From the IMG/VR virus record IMGVR_UViG_3300033984_000205, positions 30,106 through 94,105 of that record: a DNA stretch of 64,000 nucleotides; one strand, written 5' to 3'. Positions 6,001-42,129 of this stretch are shown piece after piece. The translations under genes and the position numbers were made by a program. Every line of letters starts with the position of its first letter. Position 1 is the stretch's first letter. This DNA comes from a virus. The notes below the pieces were generated by a model, which was not told the DNA's origin, made no database searches, and worked only from the letters and a program-made list of their open reading frames with translations.

Positions 6001-8454
6001 ATAGATTTCCATTAAACCATCAATTCTTGCTGTAGCTAAAGCAAGATTCTGTTTAGTAGAAACACTCATATCTGGATTACTTTGTATTGCTTCTAAGTTC
6101 TTTTTAAAGTTTTCTACAGTCCCTGTTCTAATAGCCATAGCTGCCAAGTTAGTAAACTTGTTTTGTTCAAGTCTATCTGCTTTAACATTGGAGTCTGCAG
6201 TGTTTTCTCTTCTTAAAGTCATAATCTTATGATCATAATCTAAAGGACTATATATAGTACCTCCAGTATTCATAAGAATATTATTAGCAACATCATCATC
6301 AGTAACAGCAGCATCAAGAGCTTTATACATCTCTTTTAACCTAGCTTTATCATTCATGTAGTTTCTTCCTCTACCTACCATACCTATTCCTCCAAAAGCA
6401 ACTCCTTGGATTAAAGTTTGTGCAACTACATCTCTATAAAAAGAGGTATCTTTTAAACTTTCTAATTGTTGAGCATAGTCTTGTTTATAAGTAGGTACAA
6501 ATTGATTCCAAATTTCTTCTGCAACTTCTCCAGGAAGACTATGAATTAAACTTGCTCTACCTGTATGAGCAATAGCATTGCCTGATAACTTACCAAGAGA
6601 TAAGTTATTTACAATATTTCTAGCATAGTTGTATCCTTTAATAGGTGCTGATACAGTTTTACCAAAACCACTTTGTTCAAATTTTTCAACTCCTGTTGTA
6701 ATTCCTTTTGCAATTTTATTGCCAATACCTGTCTTAGCTAATTTTCTCATTAGCATATTATTGGTAATACCTGGCAAAGCACTTCCTACATATTTCTCAG
6801 AAAAGTTTTCTTTTGCATTTTCAGAAAAACCATACCATAAAGATTCTCCCCAAGTGTTAGGTTTGTAAAGAGTATCAAACTCTTCAGTAATATTTTCTAA
6901 TCCTGCCTTAAGACCTTCTAGTTTTTGTTCTTCTTTATCAGTCCTTTTGTCTTTTTTCTCAAGCTCTGCAATATCATATTTTATAAGGTCTGCTTTTTTA
7001 TTGAAGTCTTTTTTATAATAGTTATATCTTTGTTCTCCAACTATTAATTTTTGTTTACCATTTTCATCAGTAATAAATTCCATATTACCTGTCTTAGCTT
7101 TAGCAGCCATAGCATAAGTACCAGGAGCAAGTAAAGAAGATACACCAATATTAGCAGCTCCTCCAGCAGCTTTAGCCCCTAGATTAGATAATAAAAACTT
7201 ACTTCCTCCTTCTCTCCATGCTTGTTTTAATGTAGTTTTAGCTGCATCTTTTATAAGAGCATTTGCAATAGTTTCTTCTGCAGCTCCTGCAATTCCTCCT
7301 GAAAGTAAAGTTGCTTCCATAAAAACAGCAGAAGTGGCTACTCCTTGTCCCCAACTGTAACCTAACTTGTTTTCAAATAGATTTTTAGCAGCTAACTCTT
7401 GAGTGTGTCCTTCAGCTTCTAAAAGACTTTGTTCATTTTCTGAAAGTCTTTCTTTAGGTTTATAGTTAATATTTTTACTATTAAGAACTTTTTCTTTTTC
7501 AATTCTATCTGCTTTATCTTTTATCTTAGCAACAGTTAAAGCATCTCCCATACCATATAAACCTACTGTAAGAAGTTCTTTTTTCTGAGTACCAAATCCA
7601 TCCCAAAATCCTGCTTTACCTGATGTGTAATCATCAATTTGAGTAATTAAATCATTGTATTTTGCAGCAGCTCTTAAAGACATGTCCATATCTGCAGATT
7701 GCCCAGGAGCAGTATCAAAATCTGTTCTGAGTTGTCCTTTATGTTCTTGTTGCCACTTTAAATATTCAGGAGATTTAGTATGATTAAGAGTAGCTTGTTT
7801 GTGTCTTTCTTGAGCCTTTTTTGCTTCTTGTTCATATTGAACTCTAAGTTCTGTTAAAGCAGGTTGTAAATCTTTTCTTTGTTGAGCAGTAAGGTCATTA
7901 TATTGTTGTTGTTCTTTTTTATTAAGTCCTATTCTAGTGTCACTAAAAGTATCATTAAAAAGATTAGAGATTTTACCAACTACAGCCATAATAGGAACTG
8001 CAAAATTCAAATTATATGTACCTTTTGGTCCACTTTTATCAATAAAAGAAGCATCAGATCTTGAGTATGCAGTGAAAGGGTTTTTTTCTTCTAGTGCTTT
8101 TATTTTTCCAGCATTGTCTAATACAGACAAAGCTTTTTCAACTCCATTCTTTTCAGCTACTTTAGTAAGAACTCTGTCTTTTTTTACAGCTTGTTCTTTA
8201 GCAAGTTGCTTCATTTCTTTCTTAGCTTCAGAAGTCTCATATTCAATTTTATCTCTTTCTCCTTTATCCACATAGGTAGAAAGTAGTTGAGCACTAATGC
8301 TATTATTAGAAGCACTTTGAGATCTTAACTCTTCAAAACTTAATCCTACTCCTGATTCAACCCCTGTACCAGCAGAAAGACTTTCAGGTTCTTGTTGAAT
8401 TTCTTGTTTTGCTTTGGCAAAAGCTGATAAAATTTTTCTTGATGGAAATGTCAT
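1..8454 (-). CDS. Giant virion RNA polymerase / ejection polyprotein (crAss-like two-barrel vRNAP), partial, runs off the window start
   Basis: The ATG at 8454 gives MTFPSRKILSAFAK. The ORF track shows no closed minus-strand ORF here, consistent with a frame open to base 1 (2818 codons). Near base 1 it encodes KRLALLIAPG, STDAQEY, FQPIKPVHTG and RIVYIKSS, which resemble crAss-like vRNAP blocks. It lies after the ejection-protein genes. The catalytic DxDxD is not seen and is presumably outside the window. Confidence 0.8.
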   Translation of the reverse strand, partial: MTFPSRKILSAFAKAKQEIQQEPESLSAGTGVESGVGLSFEELRSQSASNNSISAQLLSTYVDKGERDKIEYETSEAKKEMKQLAKEQAVKKDRVLTKVAEKNGVEKALSVLDNAGKIKALEEKNPFTAYSRSDASFIDKSGPKGTYNLNFAVPIMAVVGKISNLFNDTFSDTRIGLNKKEQQQYNDLTAQQRKDLQPALTELRVQYEQEAKKAQERHKQATLNHTKSPEYLKWQQEHKGQLRTDFDTAPGQSADMDMSLRAAAKYNDLITQIDDYTSGKAGFWDGFGTQKKELLTVGLYGMGDALTVAKIKDKADRIEKEKVLNSKNINYKPKERLSENEQSLLEAEGHTQELAAKNLFENKLGYSWGQGVATSAVFMEATLLSGGIAGAAEETIANALIKDAAKTTLKQAWREGGSKFLLSNLGAKAAGGAANIGVSSLLAPGTYAMAAKAKTGNMEFITDENGKQKLIVGEQRYNYYKKDFNKKADLIKYDIAELEKKDKRTDKEEQKLEGLKAGLENITEEFDTLYKPNTWGESLWYGFSENAKENFSEKYVGSALPGITNNMLMRKLAKTGIGNKIAKGITTGVEKFEQSGFGKTVSAPIKGYNYARNIVNNLSLGKLSGNAIAHTGRASLIHSLPGEVAEEIWNQFVPTYKQDYAQQLESLKDTSFYRDVVAQTLIQGVAFGGIGMVGRGRNYMNDKARLKEMYKALDAAVTDDDVANNILMNTGGTIYSPLDYDHKIMTLRRENTADSNVKADRLEQNKFTNLAAMAIRTGTVENFKKNLEAIQSNPDMSVSTKQNLALATARIDGLMEIYNKHSEKDNFATIFNLSERKLANDQTIKLIDEELVKQKEGAKEDIDAFIQRKGLSIDYDIDTLLTKEEFESPEKEQEYNDFIQGLNEENLTRVSLFGGLLMEKAGFQMDNSQLNKDINDETSPEYEERLETKKGIEKIYEQTLRDYQNDIVTPENATYNYNNQLEETPELVDETIARIKTQYKGRVADTFFEEVANKRKGLLELNQLRNKEKLEAANLQSLLLKRAEQAGYQGETDFTEESPIVVPSDATVTIIDDVAEAEYQNFVRVSVDSLLDVFPIPAELPTPVVNTSTKEETKTNKEQIADLRAEEQKEYDNNPGLGEEGHVSLNKIYDKYDKLITPLLENEKSDTTGIIVDDSEFDASIDTKNSYAPEQLASIKAFTKDSVDTISERLGRRPTFKEFAEQTYKYSPDKKALRNLFPHMVRGWQENGYESTDFQAIFNDLFNPYETAVTDYMKNMQNIFETVVPVEDKSPYTEFSEQSEKIEEQVLQNNVTTIGYDEENMAIVQTAQTEEEITNNINITPRIGYSAMSTTTVNTEGGVQVTVQGTDLAYKEGDLIDPRDLINPNLNPTGTKLSIEIADPSIWSQIPATNGRDAEGKVIMTTFDKWLAEREKTNPNFKETQEFRDKVPMFYTDSKGKRLGYVQEVDKFNAYTIKNPAGSSKNPKRAAQDPIWSNHIQKGVDNARALRDNINNGLREVTLTRSAEGSPIKIPETQPAISVRESNPQAVLVVQRGTDLHTTFSAKFQGKIIDRQLFMAGKDGTNGHTWMVSQIGTIKNDKGEIVPQYRAYPVLRAVPDDEIETARWALSAYMTLEGRTDLIKGTEFEMTKENAEKILSDINKNMGFNIGSHLELVSFIKTFFQTSIQGDKLESYKKVLFDKENYPNIKQHTNLALLGNKKAKIVSIVNGKVISSNKNYEDYLKDTLKSNLKSVNVGTEEKPVYATVAQPTFTVSYTPVVEVTGPQQIEIQQTENVELAKELVAEPLDIDKHVELLNNLGISLDEFELRDDMIENTSKLANLFKTLGNLNILQEKAIRQFIVHNIGEKVSIEYKSNVSKVKLKEDIKNELDPILVGLETQLRTLLTELNNSNSTDERVALLKEAYSTTLENIKDIKANFTPLFDKAFTDIQKQTQLVEKEKETESTNIDEETQNVKDYNKESIEESGKAKASYRLRRFLHKINRYDAKGVAQTTYLGLPSYMSFNDVYNELSKVLSMGSEVESDYDKLIEKLKQSESAFVKDILSKLDKADQQIKNEFVYNFVRHTLSSKFGMYESGPNGVTLKMYNTNANEASRIINNKWKNDNMVSGLYKKDGTVDVAFADKLIEEFKSWDKDHTTVPQTDLRNWLGKLGFSFQDAAWTQIYEKGIFNAQRDVPFKDLYNVNAGGLFVPIVDFLTKAKNDPTGMKFDVNTNVFSNLGGVTKALSAVETKYNPNLIALSFRDTGKNISTLVPTKYVTDMVQNLKRSAVDESNTLIDDLQSLSFSEDSVILDLLKNVPAFKSMFQVHHVALTAIKEKGDSPTKASLTDLSDTDFDMNALTGFQDRKVDKLPAGTKIDGITMRMAHMLSPTMSDKTTGLFMETAVFDFMADKSLLFKVEEDGTISGFKTQLKEMLFDRLVLPELKRIVKFHREVGVTNIKNYDKGAQLFHLLPIMNTLKAEDGVRIIEKLASPTLNYTIDEAVEEFRETFQNAIEDVVQQEVEFKKESWAPYTETKNGKTTSKMLDKNYFTEAGRDPSIDYDLAINDFVLNNLLFNAEMFKVFAGDIANYSQDKLFTEQRLNKETNEQEKTKINAWDFSNEESYISINKQIGTNLGKRLALLIAPGNKIANSRNEEYNQIFLNDSIDITENAEYLIKNYYGEEALTKATPLLEKHDVAAKIIDRYEQGIVDITPELYAKAKNDMKELRESLSKEFSDLSAYFDIESTDAQEYSTAAEHVSILHRMGRLSDKELKVINDKLAKGEDLTKEELNVVFQPIKPVHTGSYINKEQDVNRIVYIKSS

Positions 8455-29968: not shown

Positions 29969-30553
29969 TTATTTCTCTACTTGAAAGACAATCTTTTTTA
30001 TACTGTTAACTACTTTAAGAAATCTTTTTGCAATATCAAATCCCATCTTTTTAAAATTCTCAAATACAATAGAGTAGAACTCTATTGCACAACAGAAACC
30101 AGTAAAGATTAAAGTTACAGTTAGATCTTCTGTACTTACATTATCAAACTTAAAAGTCTTTATAAAGAAGACCTTTTCAATTCCCCAAACTCCTAAGATA
30201 GCACTAGCATAAGTGAAGGCTTTTACAGCTGAGAGTTTAAGTTTATCTGAAGAAATTAAAGCTGTACCTTTAAGGGAAGGGTCTAATTTTTCTTCATCTT
30301 TTTTAATTTTCCAAGATGCTATTATACCTGTTATAAAATCTAGTATAAAAAATAATAATAAAAGTAACAAAGCTTTTTGGATTGAAGTTAAAACAGAAGC
30401 TACAACTATTGTACTTCCTGATATAACTCCTGATGGACTTGATGCCATTGCTTTTAAGTTAATTCCTAACTTAAGAAAATACTTAGTGTATAGACTTAAC
30501 CATTCCATAATGCTGCTTTTTAATATTATTATAATGTTGTATGACTTTTTCAT
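29969..30553 (-). CDS. Holin
   Basis: Several hydrophobic helices, with LLFFILDFITGIIAS and EFYSIVFENFKKMG motifs. The start may be at MEWLSLY. Confidence 0.75.
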   Translation of the reverse strand: MKKSYNIIIILKSSIMEWLSLYTKYFLKLGINLKAMASSPSGVISGSTIVVASVLTSIQKALLLLLLFFILDFITGIIASWKIKKDEEKLDPSLKGTALISSDKLKLSAVKAFTYASAILGVWGIEKVFFIKTFKFDNVSTEDLTVTLIFTGFCCAIEFYSIVFENFKKMGFDIAKRFLKVVNSIKKIVFQVEK

Positions 30554-30736: not shown

Positions 30737-30994
30737 TTATATTTGTATTGCAGCTCCTATAAGTGTGCAGTCTAAAAATGCAACTGCACTTTTTGGAACT
30801 AGTTGATTAGATGCATATGCATTAAGATTAGTTGAACCTAAATTATACTTTGCAAGTACTTGTGCTTTAGTCATACATTGATTAGCAGCAGGAAGAGTTA
30901 CAAGATGAGATTGACCTGCTAGTAGAGGAAGTCCACTAGTTGATATATCTAAATGACTAATCATTTGATTTGCTAATAAATCATTCCAAGCCAT
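30737..30994 (-). CDS. Small fibre-associated protein
   Basis: 85 aa, coupled to the fibre gene's stop codon. Its C-terminal LDCTLIGAA motif is shared with the S/T-rich proteins. Confidence 0.55.
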   Translation of the reverse strand: MAWNDLLANQMISHLDISTSGLPLLAGQSHLVTLPAANQCMTKAQVLAKYNLGSTNLNAYASNQLVPKSAVAFLDCTLIGAAIQI

Positions 30995-33900
30995 TATTTC
31001 TCTAATTGTTTTATTCTATTCTCTAATTCTTGAATCTTAGCAACAAGTACTTCTATATAATTTACAGATAACATTTTATTTTCTCCTTCAGATACTTGAT
31101 CAGGATATTTTTCTTGAATTTCTTGTGCAACATATCCTATGTGTACTTTGTCATCTCTCTTGTCTTTCCAAGTAAATTTAATAGTATCACCATCTTGTTC
31201 TATAATATCTTTTAGTCTAGCATCAGAAGAATTAAAAAATCCTAAAGCTGTTACATTTCCAACATTAGAAACTGTAAAAACAGTACCACTTTGTTTTATT
31301 ACTCCATTTAAAACTGTTTCAGTTATTTGGTCATTACCTAAAACAGCTTGGTTGTTTTTAGTTGTAAATGAATTATACCCTATAGCAATACTATTGCTAA
31401 CAGTGGTTACTTGTGGGGATATGGTATTATCATCTTGTGATCCAAGAAAAGTATTTCTAGCACCAGTTACAGTATAACCTGCTTTGTAACCAAGTCCTGT
31501 GTTTAAGCTTGAATTTATATTAGCTTTAAGTGAATCTACACCTATTGAAGTGTTATATGTACCACCAAAATTTGAATATGATGCATATCTACCAACAGCA
31601 GTGTTTTGATACCCAGCAACATTACCTTGAAGTGCACTTGAGCCAACAGCAGTGTTCCAATTTGCATCAGTATTCTGTCTAAGTGCATCTTTACCAACTG
31701 CTGTATTTTCTTCTCCACTATTGTTTGTTTTAAGTGCTTCAGATCCTATTGCAGTATTTTGAAAACCTATTGTATTAGCTGTAAGTGTTCCTATACCAAG
31801 TGCTGTATTGTTATTTCCAGTGTTAAATTTAAGAGACTCAAACCCTACTGCTGTATTATAAATGCCAACAAAAGGTATTGTAGGATCTACAGAACTAGAT
31901 TCTCCTACATTATTTAAAAGAGCATTTACTCCAATAGCTGTATTTTGAAAACCTCCAACATTATTTGCTAGAGCACTTTTACCAATTGCTGTATTATTAT
32001 TTGCAGTATTTACTTTAAGAGCATCTATTCCAATTGCTGTATTATTAACTGCGCTATTGGGTACAGTTGATCCCTTACCAACAGTTAAACCATTAACTAC
32101 TAAGTCTTCAGTAAAACTTTTTATTCCTGCAAATGTTTGTGGATCAATTGTTACTACTCCTCCAAAATTAAGTGAAGCAGGTTGTAAGTTTAAAACACTT
32201 CCTGTTATTGTAGCTCCATTTACATTAGGTGCAGAACCTATAGGATTTAATGTTATTGTTCCTCCAGTCCCAACACCAATAGCAGTTCTGAAATCTGCAG
32301 CACTTAAAAGACTTACTGTATTATTTGCATTAGCTCTTAAGAATGTTATTGCTCCAGGATTTGTTACTGTAAAAATATTTGATCCAATTGTAGTTGCTCC
32401 TAAATTGGTTCTTGCTCCTGTTGCAGTAGTTGCACCTGTTCCTCCATTTGCAATAGCTAAAGTACCAGCTAATGTAATTATTCCAGATGTGGCTGTACTT
32501 GGAGTTAATCCTGTTGTCCCTCCTGAAAATGAAGTAACTGCTGAAGTCAAGTATGTACTTGTATCATAACTAATAACACCAGCAGTAGATTTTACAAACC
32601 CTGTTCCTGATAAAGTATTTTGTTTAGATGTTGCTAAACCACTATATAAACTATTTACTGCATTATCTCCTGAGTTGTTGTTAGTTGTATTATTAAGAAC
32701 AACTAATTTTGCATCAGTAACATATCTTCTATTTGTTGAATCAGCTATATCAGCAGTAGTTGCATCTGCTCCTACTGTAACTAATCCCTTAGAGTCATAA
32801 GTAATTTTTGTTTTAGTTGCTCCTGTTATTGCAGTATTTGGAGTAAGTTTATCATTAAATGTTGTCCAATCACTAGCTGTCAATAAACCTCTTCTATTTG
32901 TTGCAGAAGATGCATTTGGAATATTAAATGTATGAGTAATATCAGTTGAATTAATATTAAAATCGTTACCTAATGCTCCTGTTGCAAATAATTGTGATGC
33001 AGATGTCAAACCATTTAATGAAGCAAGACCTGTTGTAAATGTACTTTGTATTGAACTTAAGTTAGAATTTTGTGTATATAATGTAATAGTATTTCCTGAA
33101 CTTAAATTTTTAGGGTAAAACCTAATAGCAATTCTGTCAGAAGTTGTTAATGGTGCATACTCTGGTACAGCACATGTAAATGTATATAAATCAACTGTTG
33201 TTCCATTTGTTATAACCTCAACTAAAGAGGTGGCTAAAACATAAAATGTAGATCCATTATAAACTTCAACAGTTGCATAAACTTGTAAAACATTAGAAGC
33301 AGATGCAGATAAATAACACTGAAAAAGCCAAACTCCTGCAGGTACAACTTCTTGAGTTGGTTTACCTATATCTGTAATAAAGTTTGCAAATGCAACATCA
33401 TTTACAGTTCCTGATGTAAAATTAGCACTAGTACCTAAATTTGCTCCAGTAGATAATTGATAAAAGTTATTTGCATCTATAGTTCCTTGAGATGTTCCTC
33501 CATTACAATAGTAAACTTGTCCTCCACCTCCTCCTGCTATTTCAGGAAAGGAAGCTAGCTGACCATCCCCTCTTATATATTGTGAAGCTAATCCTGCCCC
33601 TGTTACTGTAAGAGTATCACTTGATGTTACAGGACTATTAGTAACTTGAAATGCACTTGGCATACTTAGTCCTACAGATGTTACTGTTCCACTAGTAAGA
33701 GTTGGAAATGTTGCAAGTGTACCATTACCTCTTAAATATTGAGAGATAGTACCTATTGGATATGGGTAATATGCAGTAGAATCTGTTGAACCATTAGCCT
33801 TTAAAAACTGAGATGACGTGCCACCTACTACCTTATCCACTTTTAATGCATCTTGAGTGTCAACATAACTTGTTGTAGCTAATCCATTAGTAGATGGAAT

Positions 33901-34416
33901 AACAGGTTTGTTCAATATCTGTGCATCTCCACTTGTAGCATTCCAATCAGCCTTGACATTAACTTCTGCTCCTGTAGCAATCCCAGCTAATTTATTCTTT
34001 TCAGCAGTTGTATAATCATTTAAAGTAGCACCTGCTGAAGTTCCATTTCCTAATGGAATAGTTGCATCTGTTCCTGTATCACTACTAATAGTAAAATTAG
34101 TAGTTGTTTGAGTTGGAGATAAATTAGTAACACCACTAGCAGAAGGTTCTTCTACTAACAAATGTCCTGTGCCTAAGTCTGCCCAATAATTACTATTAGT
34201 AGGAGGATATTGATTATCATTTATAAGACTTTTATATACATGCCCTTCAAACCATACAAAACAATCTAAGATATAAGGATTACCTAATGCCACAGAATGA
34301 TTTGTAGACCACTCTATAGCACTTAAAGGAGAGTCTAAATCACTCTTTCTTATTAGACATTTTATTTGATCAACTAACCAATTAATGTCTTTCTTTATTT
34401 TTAATAGTTCTAACAT
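30994..34416 (-). CDS. Long tail fibre with peptidase S74 intramolecular chaperone
   Basis: It carries NTAIGxxAL beta-roll repeats and GTLAIANGGTGATTA shaft motifs. The C-terminus reads SSDARLK...IGYVAQE...VNY followed by a coiled coil. Confidence 0.85.
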   Translation of the reverse strand: MLELLKIKKDINWLVDQIKCLIRKSDLDSPLSAIEWSTNHSVALGNPYILDCFVWFEGHVYKSLINDNQYPPTNSNYWADLGTGHLLVEEPSASGVTNLSPTQTTTNFTISSDTGTDATIPLGNGTSAGATLNDYTTAEKNKLAGIATGAEVNVKADWNATSGDAQILNKPVIPSTNGLATTSYVDTQDALKVDKVVGGTSSQFLKANGSTDSTAYYPYPIGTISQYLRGNGTLATFPTLTSGTVTSVGLSMPSAFQVTNSPVTSSDTLTVTGAGLASQYIRGDGQLASFPEIAGGGGGQVYYCNGGTSQGTIDANNFYQLSTGANLGTSANFTSGTVNDVAFANFITDIGKPTQEVVPAGVWLFQCYLSASASNVLQVYATVEVYNGSTFYVLATSLVEVITNGTTVDLYTFTCAVPEYAPLTTSDRIAIRFYPKNLSSGNTITLYTQNSNLSSIQSTFTTGLASLNGLTSASQLFATGALGNDFNINSTDITHTFNIPNASSATNRRGLLTASDWTTFNDKLTPNTAITGATKTKITYDSKGLVTVGADATTADIADSTNRRYVTDAKLVVLNNTTNNNSGDNAVNSLYSGLATSKQNTLSGTGFVKSTAGVISYDTSTYLTSAVTSFSGGTTGLTPSTATSGIITLAGTLAIANGGTGATTATGARTNLGATTIGSNIFTVTNPGAITFLRANANNTVSLLSAADFRTAIGVGTGGTITLNPIGSAPNVNGATITGSVLNLQPASLNFGGVVTIDPQTFAGIKSFTEDLVVNGLTVGKGSTVPNSAVNNTAIGIDALKVNTANNNTAIGKSALANNVGGFQNTAIGVNALLNNVGESSSVDPTIPFVGIYNTAVGFESLKFNTGNNNTALGIGTLTANTIGFQNTAIGSEALKTNNSGEENTAVGKDALRQNTDANWNTAVGSSALQGNVAGYQNTAVGRYASYSNFGGTYNTSIGVDSLKANINSSLNTGLGYKAGYTVTGARNTFLGSQDDNTISPQVTTVSNSIAIGYNSFTTKNNQAVLGNDQITETVLNGVIKQSGTVFTVSNVGNVTALGFFNSSDARLKDIIEQDGDTIKFTWKDKRDDKVHIGYVAQEIQEKYPDQVSEGENKMLSVNYIEVLVAKIQELENRIKQLEK

Positions 34417-34427
34417 GAGATATAATA

Positions 34428-35024
34428 TTATTTTGTTAAATCAAACAGTAACATACATTTATCATTGTAATGAGGATAACCTTCTTGACAATTTTCATTA
34501 ATTAAATATACAGGATTCATATAAAAAGGAGCAATCATTAAATTAATACACTTCCAACCTCCATCTATTATATCAGGATTTTGACTCCACTTAGTAAAAC
34601 TAGTTGCTAATAGATATTTACTTCCACTTCTTTTTATATTTTCTAAAGCTTTTAATACATTTTCATTACTTAAATGTCCTAGACAATCTCTAACAAAAAC
34701 TAAATCTGCTTTAGGTAACTCATCTTCAATTAAATTTAATACAGTAAAAGATTTATTAGGATACTTAGTATTATTACTTTGTATTAATTCTTCAACTATA
34801 TCTGCTCCTAAATAATTTATTTCACTTAAATCTACTTCTTTCATCCAATTAAAATCTCCACAAGGAATGTCTAACACAGATGTGATCTCATATTTTTTAA
34901 AGAGTATAGATAACTCTTTTCTTAATACTTCTGTATTTTGTAACTCTGAGCCTGAACCACTTTTACTTTCAGCAGATGCCCAAAGGTTATCAGTATAAAT
35001 TTTTGTAAAAGTTTCTTTTATCAT
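34428..35024 (-). CDS. Class I SAM-dependent methyltransferase
   Basis: SGSGS, VLDIPCGDFNWM (motif I), YLGADIV and DLVFVRDCLGHL. Confidence 0.85.
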   Translation of the reverse strand: MIKETFTKIYTDNLWASAESKSGSGSELQNTEVLRKELSILFKKYEITSVLDIPCGDFNWMKEVDLSEINYLGADIVEELIQSNNTKYPNKSFTVLNLIEDELPKADLVFVRDCLGHLSNENVLKALENIKRSGSKYLLATSFTKWSQNPDIIDGGWKCINLMIAPFYMNPVYLINENCQEGYPHYNDKCMLLFDLTK

Positions 35025-35028
35025 ATTT

Positions 35029-35955
35029 TTATATTAAGATTGTTTGTTTTCCTGTTTCTTGAACTTCTTTCCAATAATGTGAACTTGCTCTGTTTTCATC
35101 TATTTGAAGTGTATCATTATAAGGAAGTCTAGTCATATATTTTGCTTTATAAAAAAGATTTACATCTTTTTCAGAAACTCCTGCATTATGTAATATAAAG
35201 TATTTTTCTACAGAAGAAATAGGATCTGTACTCCAACCAAAATCTAATCTAGAATCTACTTTTGTTTCATAACCTTTTAACCAAATGTTCCAAAGCAAAG
35301 ACCACATTCCTGCTGTCCATTTCTGTATTGGATAATCATTAGGATATTTTTCAACATGAAACTGTTCTGTATTACAAAAGTAAGAATAAAGTTTGACACT
35401 ATCACTCTCTACTTTATTCCAAAATTCAAAACTTTCTCCTATAGTAACATACTGAGCTCCTCCTGAATGACTGTTTAATAATTTAGGTATTAGTCTATCT
35501 ATACCTATAATCTCACACATCTTTTTATAAATATGGTTACCTTTTTGTTGGATGTAATCATAGTTAATATAAGAGTTTGTATTACTTAAATACCATACAT
35601 TACCTGGCATTGCCCAATCTACTTCAGGAGGTCTTGTAAACACTATGTCACAATCATGTAGAAACAATCTTTGACCTATAAGATCTGGGTTTGCTTTCAT
35701 ATGACTACTCATAAGATTGAAGTAAATAGAAGGAACATAACTCTTATCTGCTCTAGTATCATTATAAAAAAAGAACCTGACTGTATTATAGTGGTTTTGT
35801 AGTTTTCTCCAAACTTCAGGGACTACATCATTATCTATAGCACAAAGGATGTCAATCTTATTAGGATTGACACCATGCTTTTTAAAATTATTTATTACTA
35901 CTTCCACCTGCCAAGTGTAAAAATTATTTGCAGGTTGTGCACAAATATATCTCAT
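35029..35955 (-). CDS. Putative GT-A fold glycosyltransferase
   Basis: N-terminal YTWQVEV, a hydrophobic strand followed by DCD (DxD) in LFLHDCDIVF, plus GGAQY, KWTAGMWS and ILHNAGV. The pattern resembles GT95/GT96-type protein O-glycosyltransferases. Confidence 0.6.
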   Translation of the reverse strand: MRYICAQPANNFYTWQVEVVINNFKKHGVNPNKIDILCAIDNDVVPEVWRKLQNHYNTVRFFFYNDTRADKSYVPSIYFNLMSSHMKANPDLIGQRLFLHDCDIVFTRPPEVDWAMPGNVWYLSNTNSYINYDYIQQKGNHIYKKMCEIIGIDRLIPKLLNSHSGGAQYVTIGESFEFWNKVESDSVKLYSYFCNTEQFHVEKYPNDYPIQKWTAGMWSLLWNIWLKGYETKVDSRLDFGWSTDPISSVEKYFILHNAGVSEKDVNLFYKAKYMTRLPYNDTLQIDENRASSHYWKEVQETGKQTILI

Positions 35956-35968
35956 ATCTTATATCTTA

Positions 35969-37126
35969 TTATTCACAGGTATTTGCAGAAGATGTTGGGA
36001 AGAAATTTCCTGGAGTGCCACCTTCACTATATGTATCATAAACAATAGTAAAATTTCCTTGTCTTACTCTAAGATTAGTGACTAAAGTTCCTCCAAATGT
36101 TACTGAATAAACAGGATTAGGATTGTTTTCTCCTTGCCATCCTACATAAGTTCCATAAGTTCCTATATTTGTAGTTTCACCTATATCTAATTGTGTAACA
36201 CCAAATACACTTGTAGCAGGTATTACAGTACCATTATTCATAGTAGAATATGAAATAAGATATATCTCTGATTGATAAACATCTACTGATTCTCCCATAA
36301 TTAAAGAACTATTAAAATCTATAGTACCGTCAAAATAACTTTCTCTGTCAAAATAATAACTACTAAAAGTTCCACAAACAGTTATAAGATCAGGTAGTTC
36401 TATTACTGTTGCAGTTATTCCACATAATGGTGGAAGAGTAGTAGTAATATTTTCAAAATTATGCTCAAAACAGTTATTAAAATACGAAGTTAATCTACTT
36501 TGATTATATGCTGGTATAGTTATTATTTGTTCTATAGTATTAGAACTTCCATTTGTAAATACTACATTAAAAGAATAAGCTAACGAAGTTATTGTGCCAC
36601 TTGCAAAGTCAATATATGCTGGAAGTAGTTTATTACTCAATGTTGCTACAGTTGAAGAAGAACTAAAAGTAAAGTTCATAGGAATTGAATAATGAAATTC
36701 TTGAAGAAACATATCTCCTGGGGCTGTAAATCTTGTCAAAGACGCTGAAGATGCAGTGGGGTTTATTGTTCTTCCAGCAGCTACAGCAGTAAAGTCTAGA
36801 ACAGCATTAATAACTATATTTATATTTCTATCATTTGTTGCTGTCCAATTTATACAGTGTTCTTGAGTGGTGAAAGATAGACCTATATAAGTACCTTCCC
36901 CAGCTTCACAATTTCCTAAAGACACAACTTCAGCATAGCCCCCAATTGTTGATGCTGGGAATGGTATATCTACCACATACCCTTCTAATAGTATAGATTT
37001 TGGCACTGGGGTTGGATTTATTTTTGATCTTTCATAACCATTATTGCTTATGTTATTATGATAGACATATACATCAAATGGTCCTGTACCTGATTGAGCT
37101 TCTGTTAATTTTATAAGTACGGTCAT
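35969..37126 (-). CDS. Modular virion decoration protein (MTVL...GPFD family)
   Basis: The N-terminus MTVLIKLTEAQSGTGPFDVY is paralogous to the neighbouring genes. The protein is S/T-rich and beta-rich. Confidence 0.55.
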   Translation of the reverse strand: MTVLIKLTEAQSGTGPFDVYVYHNNISNNGYERSKINPTPVPKSILLEGYVVDIPFPASTIGGYAEVVSLGNCEAGEGTYIGLSFTTQEHCINWTATNDRNINIVINAVLDFTAVAAGRTINPTASSASLTRFTAPGDMFLQEFHYSIPMNFTFSSSSTVATLSNKLLPAYIDFASGTITSLAYSFNVVFTNGSSNTIEQIITIPAYNQSRLTSYFNNCFEHNFENITTTLPPLCGITATVIELPDLITVCGTFSSYYFDRESYFDGTIDFNSSLIMGESVDVYQSEIYLISYSTMNNGTVIPATSVFGVTQLDIGETTNIGTYGTYVGWQGENNPNPVYSVTFGGTLVTNLRVRQGNFTIVYDTYSEGGTPGNFFPTSSANTCE

Positions 37127-37142
37127 CTTGTTTTATTTAAAA

Positions 37143-37790
37143 TTAGTTTCTAAAAAATTTTCTTATTGCAATAGCATTAATTCCTGTGTTCCAATTATAT
37201 AACCAAGTTCTAACACCAGTTGAAAAATTAAAACTTACAGCTTGATCTGAGTAAGCATTAAGTCCCCAAGTAGTACCTGCAGGAAGAGTCACTCCTAAAG
37301 AAGCTCTAACTCTGTACATCTCTTCTAATTGAAATATATTAGGTAGATCCCAATCACTATACCCTCCATCTACTAGTGCTCTACATGCAGCAATAGCTCC
37401 AGCATGATTATATCCTCCTAATGAAGGTAATCTTAATACTATTCCATAAGAATAATCAGGGGCTACTTCTGTAATTATTCCTCCTTCATAAGTTTGACCA
37501 ACATATAATGGAGAAAATGGACTAACAGTAGTTGTAGTAGTTGTAGGACCAGGAAGAAGTGTTACATTCACATCTACATAATCAGTGCAACCTTCTCCTC
37601 CAGTTGCTACAGATTTTACTCTAACTTTAACTGTATTATTTGGTACTATTGTTATATAACCAGCAACTAACTGTGATTTTGCAACTTCTGCTTCGTGTCC
37701 TATATAATTAGTTCCATCACTACTTATAAATAAATCATAAAAAGGACCTGATTCTACTCCTGCTGAATTTATTGTTATATTAAGTTTCAT
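37143..37790 (-). CDS. Modular virion protein with a Thr linker and Lcl/DUF1566-like C-type lectin-fold domain
   Basis: Shared N-domain (SAGVESGPFYDLF), PTTTTTT linker, VGQTYEGGII, GGYSDWDLPNIFQL and a terminal AIAIRKF. Confidence 0.7.
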   Translation of the reverse strand: MKLNITINSAGVESGPFYDLFISSDGTNYIGHEAEVAKSQLVAGYITIVPNNTVKVRVKSVATGGEGCTDYVDVNVTLLPGPTTTTTTVSPFSPLYVGQTYEGGIITEVAPDYSYGIVLRLPSLGGYNHAGAIAACRALVDGGYSDWDLPNIFQLEEMYRVRASLGVTLPAGTTWGLNAYSDQAVSFNFSTGVRTWLYNWNTGINAIAIRKFFRN

Positions 37791-37821
37791 AAGTTTATTA
37801 TTATTAATTAGTAGTTAGTAG

Positions 37822-39018
37822 TTATTCTTGTGGTTCTTCTGGTGGAACATATTCTGTTGTTGTTGTTGGATAAACATAATATCCTTCAGCTACTTCTCCT
37901 ATTCCTGTAAAGAAACAAGAATTTTCTTTTAACAGTCTTATTGAAGCTCCAGTGCCCATATGTCTATTACTTTCTATGCTTCCACCAGGGATTCCCATAT
38001 AAGGTGACCAATAACTAAGCCAATCAACAGAAGCAGTAGTAGCCCAACCTTCAATTTGAACATCATATGATTTAGCAGCCCACCATAAGCCTTCGTTTCC
38101 TAATTCATTAAAATATCCTGCACTTGCTGGATAACCTGGTTGTGCTGGATAACCCCTATAACGCACCCCTCCTGGAAGAGCTGTAAAACCAATAGTATTA
38201 GTTCCAAGAGGATTTGCTTCACCAGGGCTTGGAGTATATGCAGTCCATAGTCCTCCACTTCCAATAGTTCCTGTTGCTTTTAACATCTTTCCTGTATAGT
38301 AAGGGTAACTACTTGTTCTATTTACAGCCCAATATAATTTCTCCCAATCATGTTGATAAGGTATACGATACCCTAAAGGAGCTATATTTTTTCTTGCTGC
38401 TACTTGTTCAAGGGTTGGTGGAACTGACTCTTCTGTATGTATTCCCATAAATGCATACCAATTGTATAATTTACCATAGATAGGGCCATTTGCAGAATTA
38501 TTGTCGTAATAACACCAAGCTCCTGTTTTTAATGTGTCCCATTGTGCTTGGTCTGTTACTTGTGGAATAGGTGTTCCATCTCTATACGTTTCAACATTTA
38601 GATTACAAGGTAACCATATCATATCCTCTATATTAACATCAGGTAATGAACATAAAGAAAGAGGTGCAGTAGTGGTACTTGAAGTAGAAGTAGAAGTAGA
38701 AGATGTGCTAGTACTAGTACTAGAGGTACTAGTGCTAGTACTTGAAGTTGAAGTAGAACTACTTGAAGTACTACTTGTACTTGAACTTGTACTTGTTATA
38801 GTTAAATCTATACTAGTAGGACAGGAGACACTTGTAGAAGTTACTCTAATCTTAGTTGAACCATTTGGTACTGCTGAAGAAGAATATCCTTGCCCAACTA
38901 ATACTGATTTTTGAATACCTGAAACAAGTAATGTAAAGGTTGTTCCATTAATACTTGTGTATAAATCAAATGGGCCAGTACCTGTACCTGCTGCTGATAA
39001 TGTTGTTAAGACTGTCAT
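37822..39018 (-). CDS. Modular virion protein with an S/T linker and Fib_succ_major (FISUMP) domain
   Basis: MTVLTTLSAAGTGTGPFDLY and a Ser/Thr tract of about 40 residues. These are followed by NLNVETYRDG, AWCYYDN, YGKLYNWYA, GFTALPGG and GASIRLLKE. Confidence 0.8.
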   Translation of the reverse strand: MTVLTTLSAAGTGTGPFDLYTSINGTTFTLLVSGIQKSVLVGQGYSSSAVPNGSTKIRVTSTSVSCPTSIDLTITSTSSSTSSTSSSSTSTSSTSTSTSSTSTSTSSTSTSTSSTTTAPLSLCSLPDVNIEDMIWLPCNLNVETYRDGTPIPQVTDQAQWDTLKTGAWCYYDNNSANGPIYGKLYNWYAFMGIHTEESVPPTLEQVAARKNIAPLGYRIPYQHDWEKLYWAVNRTSSYPYYTGKMLKATGTIGSGGLWTAYTPSPGEANPLGTNTIGFTALPGGVRYRGYPAQPGYPASAGYFNELGNEGLWWAAKSYDVQIEGWATTASVDWLSYWSPYMGIPGGSIESNRHMGTGASIRLLKENSCFFTGIGEVAEGYYVYPTTTTEYVPPEEPQE

Positions 39019-39038
39019 AAGTTTATTTTTTTATTATT

Positions 39039-39845
39039 TTAAGTTGAGACTGCATTTCCTACAAGAGTGCAGTCTAAAATTGTTGTTGTACTTGTTGTAC
39101 TAGTAGTTGTTGTTGCAACCTTTCTATAATCCCATATTAAATACGCATAACTTGATTGTGTAGGATTAACATCATAAAGAAAACTATCCCCTTCCCATGT
39201 AGGAGGATTTCCTGGCAGTAATTGTATATTTTGAATTTGAGTTGCATTAGCAAGTATAGTTGCAATTTGTGCAGATGTGTATTCTACTGATGAAATCAAA
39301 TACCACATTTTATTACCAAGAGTAGGATTAAATACAATATCATTAGGTAAAAAACTTTGAAAATCTTGACGTACCATAATCATGTCATTGACTTGTGGAG
39401 ATGAGAAATCGTACAATGATGTAACATTTGTTTGAAAAAGAGAAGGTTGTTGTACAGTTAGTATTACTCCACTATTATAATACCAATCTCCTGAAGGTAA
39501 ATGGCTAGTATAATTATATGATGGACTATAAGTAACTTTTCCACTATCTTCAGGGTCATTAATAATTATTCCTGTTAAAGAATTAATTTGAGGTGGTTCA
39601 GTAGTAGTACTAGTTGTAGTTAACAAACTTATAGGTATATCTATAGAATTACTACAATTATCTGTAGCAACTACTCTTATTATAGTTGCATTATTTGGAA
39701 CATTAGATAAAGAGTATCCTTGTTGTTGTTGTAATTGTAATTTTGTTATTCCTGTTACAATAGGAGTATTATAGTCTATATTAGAATAAAGACTAAAAAG
39801 TGTTGTACTTGTCCCTGCTACTGATAATTTAACTAATACTGTCAT
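39039..39845 (-). CDS. Modular virion protein with two Thr/Ser tracts
   Basis: The start was moved to MTVLVKLSVAG (39845) to match its paralogs. It has TTTSTTT and TTTTSTTSTTT tracts, YAYLIWDYR and a C-terminal LDCTLVGNA. Confidence 0.6.
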   Translation of the reverse strand: MTVLVKLSVAGTSTTLFSLYSNIDYNTPIVTGITKLQLQQQQGYSLSNVPNNATIIRVVATDNCSNSIDIPISLLTTTSTTTEPPQINSLTGIIINDPEDSGKVTYSPSYNYTSHLPSGDWYYNSGVILTVQQPSLFQTNVTSLYDFSSPQVNDMIMVRQDFQSFLPNDIVFNPTLGNKMWYLISSVEYTSAQIATILANATQIQNIQLLPGNPPTWEGDSFLYDVNPTQSSYAYLIWDYRKVATTTTSTTSTTTILDCTLVGNAVST

Positions 39846-39847
39846 AA

Positions 39848-40891
39848 TTATATTTGTTGAGCACTTCCTATCATAATACAAGGATTTGTAGTAGTACTTG
39901 TACTGCTTGTACTGCTTGTACTAGTTGAAGAAGTACTAGATGTACTTGTACTTGAAGTACTTGTGCTAGATGTGCTACTAATAGGTATAGTAGTAGTACT
40001 AGAGGTACTTGAAGTACTCGATGTACTAGAGGTACTTGAAATAGGTAATGTAGTTGTACTACTTGTGCTACTTGTAGAACTTGTACTAGAAATAGGTAGA
40101 GTAGTTGTAGGTGCAGCAGTAGTTATAGAAGAAGGGTCTGTAGGTATAATACCTATCTCTCTTATACATGTACTTACTATATCAAAATTATACTTACTTG
40201 TAATATAATCTTTTTCTTCTTGACTTACTGCCAAAGCTTTGTCTTGGTAGTAAAAACTTAAATAATAAGAACTAATAATACTTAACATAGTTCTTTCTAT
40301 TTTTGCATTTCCATATATTTTTTCATGTAATAAACTGCAAAGTACTTCTTGAGTATAAAGACAAATATTATTTTGTGTAGTTTGATTTATATAATTTTGA
40401 TATGTAGGATAATTAATTGTGTTAAAAGCTTGAGCTTTCATAAAAGCTTCTAAGTAATCTTCACATTGATTGTATCCTCCACAGTCTCCACATTTACCTC
40501 CTGACCCTGAGTGTCCTCCTGAATGTCCTCCTGAATTTGAATTTGATCCAGAGTTTGAACCCATCCCTGAACTTGAACTTGAACCTCCTCCCCCTGAACT
40601 TGTCCCACATATAGTTTGTTGTGCCATTAAGACAAAAGAACTTAATAGATTCTCGTAATATTTAATAGTAAAAGGAACACTGGTTTCTGTAGAAGAACTT
40701 AAATAAATAGAATAGTTTCCATCTGTTGCAAAAGTTAAAACTACTGTTTGATTAGGTGTAATTACTCCTGTCTTTATTTCAGTAGTTGCATCACAAGTTA
40801 CTTTACTTACATGGTAAGTAAGATCTACTGTTCCAGTATTTTTAAGTGTGTGAGTGTCTTTGTATTTTAAGTATGTGTAATTCAAAGCCAT
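39848..40891 (-). CDS. Virion structural protein with a Gly/Ser loop and mucin-like S/T-rich C-terminus
   Basis: An Ig-like N-domain (FATDGNYSI) and a helical Cys-containing domain. The S/T tail is about 80 residues and includes three TTT(L/I)PISSTSSTS repeats. Confidence 0.65.
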   Translation of the reverse strand: MALNYTYLKYKDTHTLKNTGTVDLTYHVSKVTCDATTEIKTGVITPNQTVVLTFATDGNYSIYLSSSTETSVPFTIKYYENLLSSFVLMAQQTICGTSSGGGGSSSSSGMGSNSGSNSNSGGHSGGHSGSGGKCGDCGGYNQCEDYLEAFMKAQAFNTINYPTYQNYINQTTQNNICLYTQEVLCSLLHEKIYGNAKIERTMLSIISSYYLSFYYQDKALAVSQEEKDYITSKYNFDIVSTCIREIGIIPTDPSSITTAAPTTTLPISSTSSTSSTSSTTTLPISSTSSTSSTSSTSSTTTIPISSTSSTSTSSTSTSSTSSTSTSSTSSTSTTTNPCIMIGSAQQI

Positions 40892-40910
40892 GGGAAAGTG
40901 TTTTAAATGT

Positions 40911-40918
40911 CAAATATA
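40911..40918 (-). promoter_or_regulatory. Bacteroidota -7 element TATATTTG driving the S/T-protein/GT/MTase/fibre operon
   Basis: TAnnTTTG just after a terminator and upstream of ATG 40891. Confidence 0.65.
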
Positions 40919-40924
40919 CAAAAT

Positions 40925-40957
40925 AAAAAAACATCTCTATAGAAATAGAGATGTTTT
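40925..40957 (-). terminator. Intrinsic terminator after the 40990 gene
   Basis: AAAACATCTCTAT-AGAA-ATAGAGATGTTTT, with a U-tract on the minus strand. Confidence 0.75.
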
Positions 40958-40989: not shown

Positions 40990-42129
40990 TTAATCAATCA
41001 AAGGAGTATTAGTAATAAAAGCAGTCAAGAAGTTTTTTATAGAGTTTCCTAAGTTACAGTCATCACACTCATATGCAAAGATTGTACTTAATGGATTACT
41101 ATATTCTTGCCACCCTGATTCAGAACTTTGGTTATATTCCAAAATAATTTGGTCATAATTAGTATTCTTATCAGCTAAGTAAGAGATATTACCATAAGCA
41201 GTACCTGTTACTCCTGACAATTTGTAAGGACCTGAACCTGCATTTCCTGAAGCATGGTATTCTTTTTGTAAAATATTATTACCAGTACCTTCTGCATACA
41301 CAGGGTATTGATTAATAGTAGTTGCACCTGAACATCCAAAACCTTCAATTAGAGAAACAATAAGAACTGTTTCCAATAATTTGTAGTATTGTAAGTTTAC
41401 TTGGCAAAAAGAACCAATAGAAAGAGGTTGACTTACTAATTGAAAATCAGCAAATACTTGAGCAGCAGCTAAAGCAGTTTTATTGAACACAATTAAATCA
41501 TCAACATCAGCACTAGTCATTACTGCACCAGCAGCATAATTAACAGAAGTTCCATGAGTAGCAGTAGTTAAAGCTTGTCTTGCAACAGGCTGAGCAATAA
41601 CTAATCCAGACTCATCTGCATTAATATTAGCTACAAATAATTGAGTCAATACATTTGCATCTAAAGAACCACATCCTTCAGCACAATCATCACAACAAGG
41701 AGTTGTAACCATATAAGCTTTGCTAAATTGGTTATAACCTTGAATTCTGTTAATTCTTGCATTACGGAATTCTATTCTTACTCCATACTCAGTATCACAC
41801 TCAGCTTTGAAGTTACCTACAGTTACCTTCATAGGGGCTCCTGTTGAACAAAGTTTTTCAGTAAAACCTACTACACCTTGTCTTTGTATTACTTGACCTG
41901 CAGAAGTTCTGTAGTCAATACCTCCTGAAGGAGTAGTATAAGCCAAAGCAAAGAAAACTTCTTTAGGCATTGGACTTGTAAATTGATCTACAGCTAAGTT
42001 AGTAGCTGCATCAAATGCACCTAATTGACCTACAGCTAAATTCTCTATAGATACTCCTGCTCCAGGATCTAAAAGGTTACAGTTAGTTACTGGTAACACT
42101 TTAAAAACGTCATTGTTACGATTACTCAT
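40990..42129 (-). CDS. Structural protein, probably auxiliary capsid/decoration
   Basis: 379 aa, located in the conserved block downstream of the MCP and followed by a terminator. It contains Y.EGTG. Confidence 0.55.
   Translation of the reverse strand: MSNRNNDVFKVLPVTNCNLLDPGAGVSIENLAVGQLGAFDAATNLAVDQFTSPMPKEVFFALAYTTPSGGIDYRTSAGQVIQRQGVVGFTEKLCSTGAPMKVTVGNFKAECDTEYGVRIEFRNARINRIQGYNQFSKAYMVTTPCCDDCAEGCGSLDANVLTQLFVANINADESGLVIAQPVARQALTTATHGTSVNYAAGAVMTSADVDDLIVFNKTALAAAQVFADFQLVSQPLSIGSFCQVNLQYYKLLETVLIVSLIEGFGCSGATTINQYPVYAEGTGNNILQKEYHASGNAGSGPYKLSGVTGTAYGNISYLADKNTNYDQIILEYNQSSESGWQEYSNPLSTIFAYECDDCNLGNSIKNFLTAFITNTPLID

Follow-up and report, generated by a model that had tools for sequence, protein, structure and literature searches.

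Candidate O-glycosylation of serine/threonine tracts on structural proteins of a crAss-like phage by a phage-encoded glycosyltransferase

Experimental evidence for the glycosylation of phage particles has so far come from actinobacteriophages only, in which the sugars change recognition by antibodies. The virions of Che8, Corndog and Myrna are O-glycosylated, and their capsid and tail-tube subunits bear the glycans C-terminally (Freeman et al. 2023, summarized in PMC12619734, PMC13313380 and PMC12582341). Here we describe a candidate system of this kind in a stretch of viral DNA of 64,000 nucleotides (hereafter the window), which comprises positions 30,106 to 94,105 of the IMG/VR record IMGVR_UViG_3300033984_000205. 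A minus-strand gene unit of the window encodes structural-looking proteins with long tracts of serine and threonine (Ser/Thr tracts), followed by a predicted glycosyltransferase (GT) and a methyltransferase. We consider it likely, with a probability of roughly 0.7, that the phage GT would O-glycosylate these tracts in the cytoplasm and that the methyltransferase would methylate the sugar. In the literature searched, we found no description of the family to which the GT belongs (phrog_4417), nor of virion glycosylation outside the actinobacteriophages, whether in phages of Bacillota, in phages of Bacteroidota or in crAss-like phages. One study stained ten other phages and detected no glycoproteins, and there is no evidence that any of the ten carries a phrog_4417 gene.

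The Ser/Thr tracts lie in the genes immediately upstream of the GT gene, all of which are encoded, like the remainder of the unit, on the minus strand. The most extensive tract occurs in a protein of 347 amino acids (39848..40891), in which an N-terminal module (residues 1-253) is followed by 74 residues (262-335; DNA 39887-40108) that are at least 85% Ser/Thr and include pure Ser/Thr runs of 14, 17 and 31. A protein of 398 amino acids (37822..39018) has a single pure run of 43 residues (DNA 38668-38796), and a protein of 268 amino acids (39039..39845, counted from its ATG; an alternative TTG start at 39881 is given in the list of open reading frames, ORFs) has Thr-rich runs of 7 and 11 (DNA 39600-39620 and 39081-39113). 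In each of these three proteins the observed run was reached in none of 2000 shuffles. The run of the 215-residue protein (37143..37790) is T6 only (DNA 37527-37544) and is weak, being reached by 8 of 2000 shuffles. The sequence-only reading of this DNA had listed four proteins with pure Ser/Thr runs, and these were verified, with lengths of 6 to 43 residues. Runs of six or more Ser/Thr residues ([ST]{6,}) are confined, within the 94,105-bp genome, to these four genes, and the number of runs of at least eight expected from composition is about 0.005 for the whole genome. The DNA encoding the runs (window 37527-40088) consists of imperfect tandem repeats of 6-27 nt, with Tandem Repeats Finder scores of 40-79, and tract length varies among the close relatives L087, L089 and L090, which fits slippage-prone arrays.

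The GT itself is a protein of 308 amino acids (35029..35955), for which the structure prediction allows us to say with confidence that it is a glycosyltransferase of the GT-A type. Its AlphaFold model (pLDDT, the predicted local distance difference test, 97; pTM, the predicted template modelling score, 0.93) is a single Rossmann-like alpha/beta/alpha domain that aligns with solved GT-A enzymes along most of its length, so that the GT-A fold expected for the DxD protein was recovered. Foldseek searches against solved structures returned UGGT (GT24), glycogenin and LgtC (GT8), alpha-1,3-galactosyltransferase (GT6) and LARGE1, all with probabilities of 1.0 and with E-values of 2e-7 or weaker; glycogenin was the top structural match, and WbbM and GlyE are further neighbours in fold. 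The DxD motif (HDCD, D101-x-D103) stands immediately after the fourth strand (residues 96-100), and H256 lies in the strand 254-256. Across 67 sequences of 29-81% identity, D103, H256 and K270 never vary, and D101 is kept in at least 90%; three tyrosines are likewise invariant across the phrog_4417 family. UGGT, glycogenin, LgtC, alpha-1,3-galactosyltransferase and LARGE1 are all retaining enzymes, and by analogy the window GT probably follows retaining chemistry as well. There is no evident signal peptide or membrane segment, and the protein should therefore work in the cytoplasm.

By sequence, the GT falls into PHROG 4417 (E 4e-68), which has no annotated function, and homologues are numerous, with more than 1200 in a protein collection at 90% identity and 815 representatives in a library at 50% identity. 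Sequence and profile searches gave only chance-level matches in the PDB, none in NCBIfam and none in Pfam at E-values up to 0.1, and the CAZy family GT8 (PF01501) matched neither the window GT nor any of the 67 family members at E-values up to 10. Close matches to predicted viral structures were confined to phage proteins that are themselves uncharacterised. We file it as a GT-A enzyme of an unnamed family that is structurally nearest to GT8, and we place it in none of the families GT8, GT95 and GT96. Fusions found in other genomes join the GT domain with GT2, GT6, GT32 and, weakly, GT25 domains, with methyltransferases, or with radical-SAM/SPASM domains (SAM, S-adenosylmethionine). P0122, a relative with 62% identity to the window GT, is fused to radical-SAM and SPASM domains.

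The linkage between the GT and Ser/Thr tracts extends to many other genomes. In 80 IMG/VR loci with a GT homologue of 42-76% identity, we counted same-strand runs of at least eight Ser/Thr residues ([ST]{8,}) and found 150, 77, 28 and 20 in the first, second, third and fourth kilobase upstream. Thus, 255 of 305 same-strand upstream runs fall within 3 kb of the GT, against a background of about 0.06-0.13 runs per kb at 5-10 kb upstream; the 10 kb downstream held no same-strand run, and only ten of the 80 loci are devoid of runs, 70 having one or more. A second set, of 80 GT loci from bacterial genomes, yielded 57, 18 and 31 runs per kb upstream as compared with 0-3 per kb elsewhere, and in its Bacillota prophage-type cluster a run lies within 3 kb upstream in 31 of 33 loci. 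Two types of tract can be distinguished. In the bacterial set, 42 of the 54 tract-bearing ORFs have the tract as a C-terminal tail on a major capsid or tail protein, whereas 95 of the 103 tract-bearing ORFs in the IMG/VR set have it as an internal linker that connects a docking domain to a head domain; the window belongs to the second type.

Gain and loss of the GT can be followed in the lineage of the window itself, which we collected through homologues of the FpV4 protein gp17, counting GT-less loci if at least 3 kb of downstream sequence was available. All six loci with the GT hold 6-11 runs, whereas none of the 17 loci without it holds any. An orthologue of the 347-residue protein is found in every phage of the lineage, and it has a tract only where the GT is present: the orthologues from GT-bearing phages are 400-481 amino acids long with 30-35% Ser+Thr and carry the tract directly past the 253-residue N-terminal module, whereas those from GT-less phages have 222-464 amino acids, 11-20% Ser+Thr and no tract. 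In the gp17 tree, GT presence has changed at least 2-3 times, and the GT-less locus L111 is sister to a GT-bearing clade with support of 100/99.

Twelve annotated phages, whose hosts are Enterococcus, Lactococcus, Lactobacillus, Lacticaseibacillus, Staphylococcus, Clostridium, Arcanobacterium and Chryseobacterium, show a similar pattern. Here the GT gene stands immediately 3' of the major tail or major head gene, and a poly-Thr tail is carried either by the product of that gene or by a small ORF lying between it and the GT; three GT-less relatives have no such tails. The tail proteins of phiFL1A and bIL285 end in ...TTTTTSTTTTTTSSTTTTTTTQASSK and ...KTTTTTTTTTRHD, respectively, and the head protein of iLp84, like its tail protein, finishes in poly-Thr followed by SK. 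Within Coetzeevirus, the GT-bearing phage R3.3 has a poly-Thr tail on both its capsid and its tail protein, whereas the orthologues in the GT-less phages phiJL-1 and Bassarid have no such tails, ending in ...FTATPKA / ...FTASPKA and ...TGTTGA / ...PGSGAA, and no Ser/Thr run was found anywhere in the genomes of these two phages. The closeness and direction of the linkage in unrelated phages, together with the correspondence of GT gain or loss to the tracts in two lineages (that of the window and Coetzeevirus), bear out the co-occurrence that the mechanism predicts. The contrast within the lineage (6/6 vs 0/17) and those among the annotated phages and Coetzeevirus are stronger evidence than raw locus counts. 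In Staphylococcus phage SA2 (L005:4667-4930), Arcanobacterium phage TPWB06 (L133:4720-4926) and Enterococcus phage VPE25 (L004:4725-4880), a small Thr-rich ORF just before the GT gene overlaps the major tail or capsid gene at its 3' end, or comes right after it, in a frame other than that of the tail or capsid gene; a frameshift into this ORF might give some subunits a poly-Thr tail.

The methyltransferase gene (34428..35024, 198 amino acids) begins 4 nt past the GT gene. Its product is a class I SAM methyltransferase that matches phrog_3382 ("methyltransferase", E 5e-52) and has the glycine-rich SAM motif VLDIPCGDF at residues 50-58. The Pfam families Methyltransf_12, 25, 23 and 11 matched at E-values of 4e-5 to 1e-3, all under the curated cut-offs, and comparison with Pfam and NCBIfam assigned no specific subfamily. 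Longer relatives of this protein are nearly all fused to GT domains, with GT2, GT32 (Gly_transf_sug/Caps_synth), GT4, a GlcNAc-transferase and the phrog_4417 GT itself as partners. By the Rosetta-stone argument, these fusions are good evidence that the methyltransferase works in a glycan pathway, and the link to glycan chemistry drawn in the sequence-only reading gains support from the fusions, which involve at least four families of glycosyltransferases. Its simplest role would be to O-methylate the sugar that the GT transfers. It is an accessory and not a constant partner of the GT, and among the close GT-bearing relatives it is present in L087 only. Five further relatives (P0276, P0280, P0281, P0285 and P0286) are fused to a 2-oxoglutarate- and Fe(II)-dependent (2OG-Fe(II)) oxygenase (PF13640); the oxygenase and radical-SAM/SPASM fusions hint that more protein-modifying steps are tied to the pathway in other phages.

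The mechanism that we propose runs as follows. The GT would be a soluble, metal-dependent GT-A enzyme, probably retaining, that is produced late in infection alongside its substrates. It would move a sugar from a host nucleotide-sugar to the hydroxyls of the tracts in the cytoplasm, with the tract itself serving as the acceptor. The substrates would be the products of the genes just upstream, namely one conserved structural protein and a series of paralogues, each made of a docking domain, a Ser/Thr linker and a variable head. The SAM methyltransferase would afterwards O-methylate the attached sugar, and the outcome would be mucin-like, glycan-clad linkers on particle-associated proteins. The earlier interpretation is upheld in its GT fold and in the linkage of the GT to the tracts; the kinship with GT95/GT96 that it included is weak.

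Several observations weigh against this mechanism. Our search of the literature on the phrog_4417 family returned no biochemical or mass-spectrometric observation. Ten of the 80 viral loci lack any run, as do about 40% of the eligible bacterial loci, mostly long fused forms from Chitinophagia and Sphingobacteriia, so that the GT domain appears to work in other contexts too. Many of the loci are related to one another; their counts are therefore not independent, and the raw numbers overstate the independent events. In the window, the 385-residue member of the unit has no pure Ser/Thr run and the 215-residue member has nothing longer than T6. The methyltransferase adjoins or is fused to the GT in only 15 of the 80 IMG/VR loci. 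The placement of the acceptor proteins in the virion is presumed from gene position and domain types, and a fold search with the N-terminal module of the 347-residue protein found a generic Ig/FN3 (immunoglobulin/fibronectin type III) sandwich only and no crAss001 protein.

Other explanations of the same genes have to be considered. The GT may instead act on the DNA of the phage or on a polymer of the host envelope (lipopolysaccharide (LPS)/O-antigen, capsule or teichoic acid), the tracts being flexible linkers that merely share its cassette. DNA glucosylation and serotype conversion are the classical roles of phage glycosyltransferases (PMC12619734, in a passage citing reviews), LgtC and WbbM, two of the fold neighbours, act on LPS or O-antigen, and the long-form homologues of Chitinophagia have no tract nearby. 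We nevertheless regard such targets as unlikely, since the tracts are found on proteins as different as tail tubes, capsids, Ig-decoration proteins and fibre-like paralogues, always just upstream of the GT and on the same strand in unrelated phages, and since their gain or loss in orthologous proteins coincides with that of the GT gene in two lineages. In siphophages the GT gene is inserted within conserved head-tail modules, and in the window genome no thymidylate-synthase-like hydroxymethylase gene was found and the GT has no membrane segment. DNA hypermodification was accordingly set aside, the GT position and the co-variation both favouring proteins as targets.

It is also conceivable that a host enzyme adds the first sugar and that the phage GT only extends or caps the glycan. 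UGGT, LARGE1 and GlyE, all structural neighbours, extend glycans instead of starting them, and many phrog_4417 members carry additional fused GT domains. Such a division of labour seems decidedly unlikely to us: the window genome has this single GT-family gene and no GT2, the single-GT arrangement recurs in phages of Flavobacteriia and Bacillota hosts, and to our knowledge these hosts share no known cytoplasmic enzyme that initiates on Ser/Thr tracts. In addition, the tracts are missing wherever the phage GT gene is missing. That the GT-like protein is non-catalytic, being a tract-binding chaperone or assembly factor, or glycosylates itself as glycogenin does on its own tyrosine, agrees with the three invariant tyrosines and with the tail-chaperone position of the siphophage gene, and is very improbable given a metal and nucleotide-sugar set (DxD after beta-4, the C-terminal His and the Lys) that is invariant or nearly so at about 30% identity and given the fusions to other GTs and sugar-type methyltransferases, which favour an active glycan pathway.

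The proposal that the window GT glycosylates Ser/Thr tracts had originally been accompanied by a comparison with the eukaryotic peptide O-glycosyltransferases of GT95 and GT96. Part of this resemblance could be recovered: HPAT (GT95, PF23452) is the top Pfam family of the phrog_4417 set, with weak matches in 2 of 67 members (best E 1.3e-4; model cut-off 23.9 bits), and in neighbouring Atlas clusters it is found on 10% of the members. The window GT has no such match, and the HPAT model found nothing in the window genome; ten divergent family members were not matched, and in five large phage records there was no match at the GT gene and one spurious match of 11.8 bits elsewhere. The fold matches included no solved structure from GT95 or GT96, the nearest folds being GT8, GT24 and GT6. 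By these comparisons any kinship with GT95/GT96 appears weak.

The candidate acceptors of the window comprise two kinds of protein. The N-terminal module of the 347-residue protein is an Ig/FN3-like sandwich plus a helical domain and is kept in all relatives. At residues 98-139 (window 40474-40599) its orthologues have a Cys-rich motif with the consensus LCGCxKCxDCxECNECEDY; in the window copy, a low-complexity insertion rich in Gly, Ser, Asn and His surrounds this segment, and its pLDDT is below 50. The proteins of 268, 398, 215 and 385 amino acids are paralogues that align over a common N-terminal domain of about 75 residues. Their C-terminal heads vary: that of the 398-residue protein matches FISUMP/Fib_succ_major (E 8e-26), which is the sole significant family match among the heads, that of the 215-residue protein is weakly Lcl_C/DUF1566-like, and the C-terminal part of the 385-residue protein (35969..37126) has no family match. 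With glycans attached, the tracts may form stiff, protease-resistant linkers displaying lectin domains. The four paralogues (window 35969-39845) are limited to the GT-bearing members of the lineage, being absent from FpV4-like and other GT-less relatives; the docking-domain proteins and the GT thus behave as a cassette that can be inserted between the 347-residue gene and the tail-fibre gene.

These genes form a tightly packed minus-strand unit of eight genes (40891-30994), with spacings of 4-31 nt and one 4-nt overlap. It begins after a terminator-like hairpin (40928..40957, minus strand; a 13-bp stem and then a T-run) that closes the upstream structural unit, and the composition given in the sequence-only reading, with five proteins, the DxD protein, the methyltransferase and a fibre following a terminator, agrees with the gene layout. 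A TAnnTTTG element (TATATTTG, resembling the -7 element of Bacteroidota) lies at 40911..40918 on the minus strand, 20 nt 5' of the first ATG. Since the window has 108 copies of this motif and 100 are expected by chance, its frequency was rejected as promoter evidence; location alone makes a promoter at 40911-40918 plausible. The last large gene of the unit (30994..34416) encodes a tail-fibre- or spike-like protein of 1140 amino acids without any Ser/Thr run. It had been designated an S74 tail fibre; the fibre-like gene is indeed present, but the S74-chaperone-like segment at its C-terminus scores 20.1 bits and stays under the Pfam cut-off of 22. The major capsid protein is encoded by a 485-residue gene (45213-43756, minus strand) and matches crAss001 gp32 (E 5e-31), which supports the designation of the phage as crAss-like. 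Of the phages in culture, those of the FpV4 type, which infect Flavobacterium psychrophilum, are most closely related to it. A gene for 379 amino acids before the terminator (40990-42129) had been labelled as capsid, which was wrong: it is a homologue of FpV4 gp17 (phrog_15060, without annotated function). PDB sequence searches with the 379- and 347-residue proteins gave no structural-protein match.

Long forms of the GT, of 510-620 amino acids, are encoded on the chromosomes of Chitinophaga, Pedobacter, Mucilaginibacter and Sphingobacterium, with no Ser/Thr run nearby. In the one such locus that was inspected, from Chitinophaga polysaccharea (L147:2035-12867), a long form of 574 amino acids is located in a cluster of the ribosomal-peptide-maturation type, together with a C39-peptidase ABC exporter, HlyD, a SPASM protein and a LanC-like protein. 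An ORF for 79 amino acids in this cluster (6076-6315) has a double-glycine leader and a core rich in Ser, Thr, Asn and Asp, and its product is a candidate glycosylated secreted peptide, to judge from these features. This cluster and the radical-SAM/SPASM fusion point to peptide acceptors rather than polysaccharide or DNA.

A broader view is possible, although we give it somewhat less than an even chance: phrog_4417 may be a large family of soluble Ser/Thr O-glycosyltransferases of peptides and proteins, a prokaryotic and viral sister to the plant enzymes of GT95/GT96, that serves both phage glycan coats and, in the chromosomal long forms, secreted ribosomal peptides. The coats would be mucin-like and sometimes methyl-capped, and would cover capsid, tail-tube and fibre proteins in phages of at least two phyla. 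Virion glycosylation would then be common not only in crAss-like phages but also in well-studied phages that are grown in the laboratory on Enterococcus, Lactococcus, Lactobacillus and Staphylococcus. Phages with sugar coats would be found widely, on bacteria from the gut, from dairy, from the clinic and from water, and some of them would be phages already used in laboratories and in therapy trials. This would bear on how phages encounter the immune system, mucus and host defences, and on how virion masses, cryo-electron-microscopy densities and structural-gene annotations are read. Being small, soluble and apparently directed to a simple sequence tag, the GT is also a candidate tool for glycosylating recombinant proteins.

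Among known systems, the actinobacteriophages offer the closest parallel. There too, as far as the cited passages describe it, one or more phage-encoded GTs act, often with a methyltransferase, and modification is cytoplasmic and occurs before or during assembly. A genetic linkage of the GT to the structural genes for the acceptor proteins, here candidate acceptors, is likewise shared, and the C-terminal poly-Thr tails on the capsid and tail proteins of Bacillota phages are a close counterpart. The phrog_4417 system differs in that its hosts are Bacteroidota and Bacillota, its enzyme family is unannotated and has no Pfam entry, and the candidate acceptor is a pure Ser/Thr run, which in the window is an internal linker and not a C-terminal tail. 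In the serine-rich-repeat adhesins of Gram-positive bacteria, the GT-B pair GtfA/GtfB adds the first sugar and GT8 enzymes such as GlyE (PDB 5gvv) extend the glycan; the substrates of that system are secreted bacterial adhesins, and its sequence similarity to the phage proteins is below detection. The plant and algal enzymes HPAT (GT95) and SGT1/SERGT1 (GT96) are likewise single GT-A domains that act on hydroxyls of low-complexity tracts, and, unlike the window GT, they are membrane-anchored proteins of the Golgi. From glycogenin, LgtC, the catalytic domain of UGGT and alpha-1,3-galactosyltransferase (GT8, GT24 and GT6) the window GT is separated by identities of 6-13% and by different acceptors. 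Finally, the A064R protein of Chlorovirus PBCV-1, which takes part in capsid glycosylation, is a multidomain protein that combines two glycosyltransferase domains with a methyltransferase domain acting on sugars. PBCV-1 is a eukaryotic virus with atypical N-linked glycans, and its enzymes are unrelated to the present ones as far as tested; it nonetheless resembles the system proposed here in that a virus encodes the cytoplasmic glycosylation of its own structural proteins with a fused methyltransferase, in parallel with the GT-methyltransferase fusions of phrog_4417.

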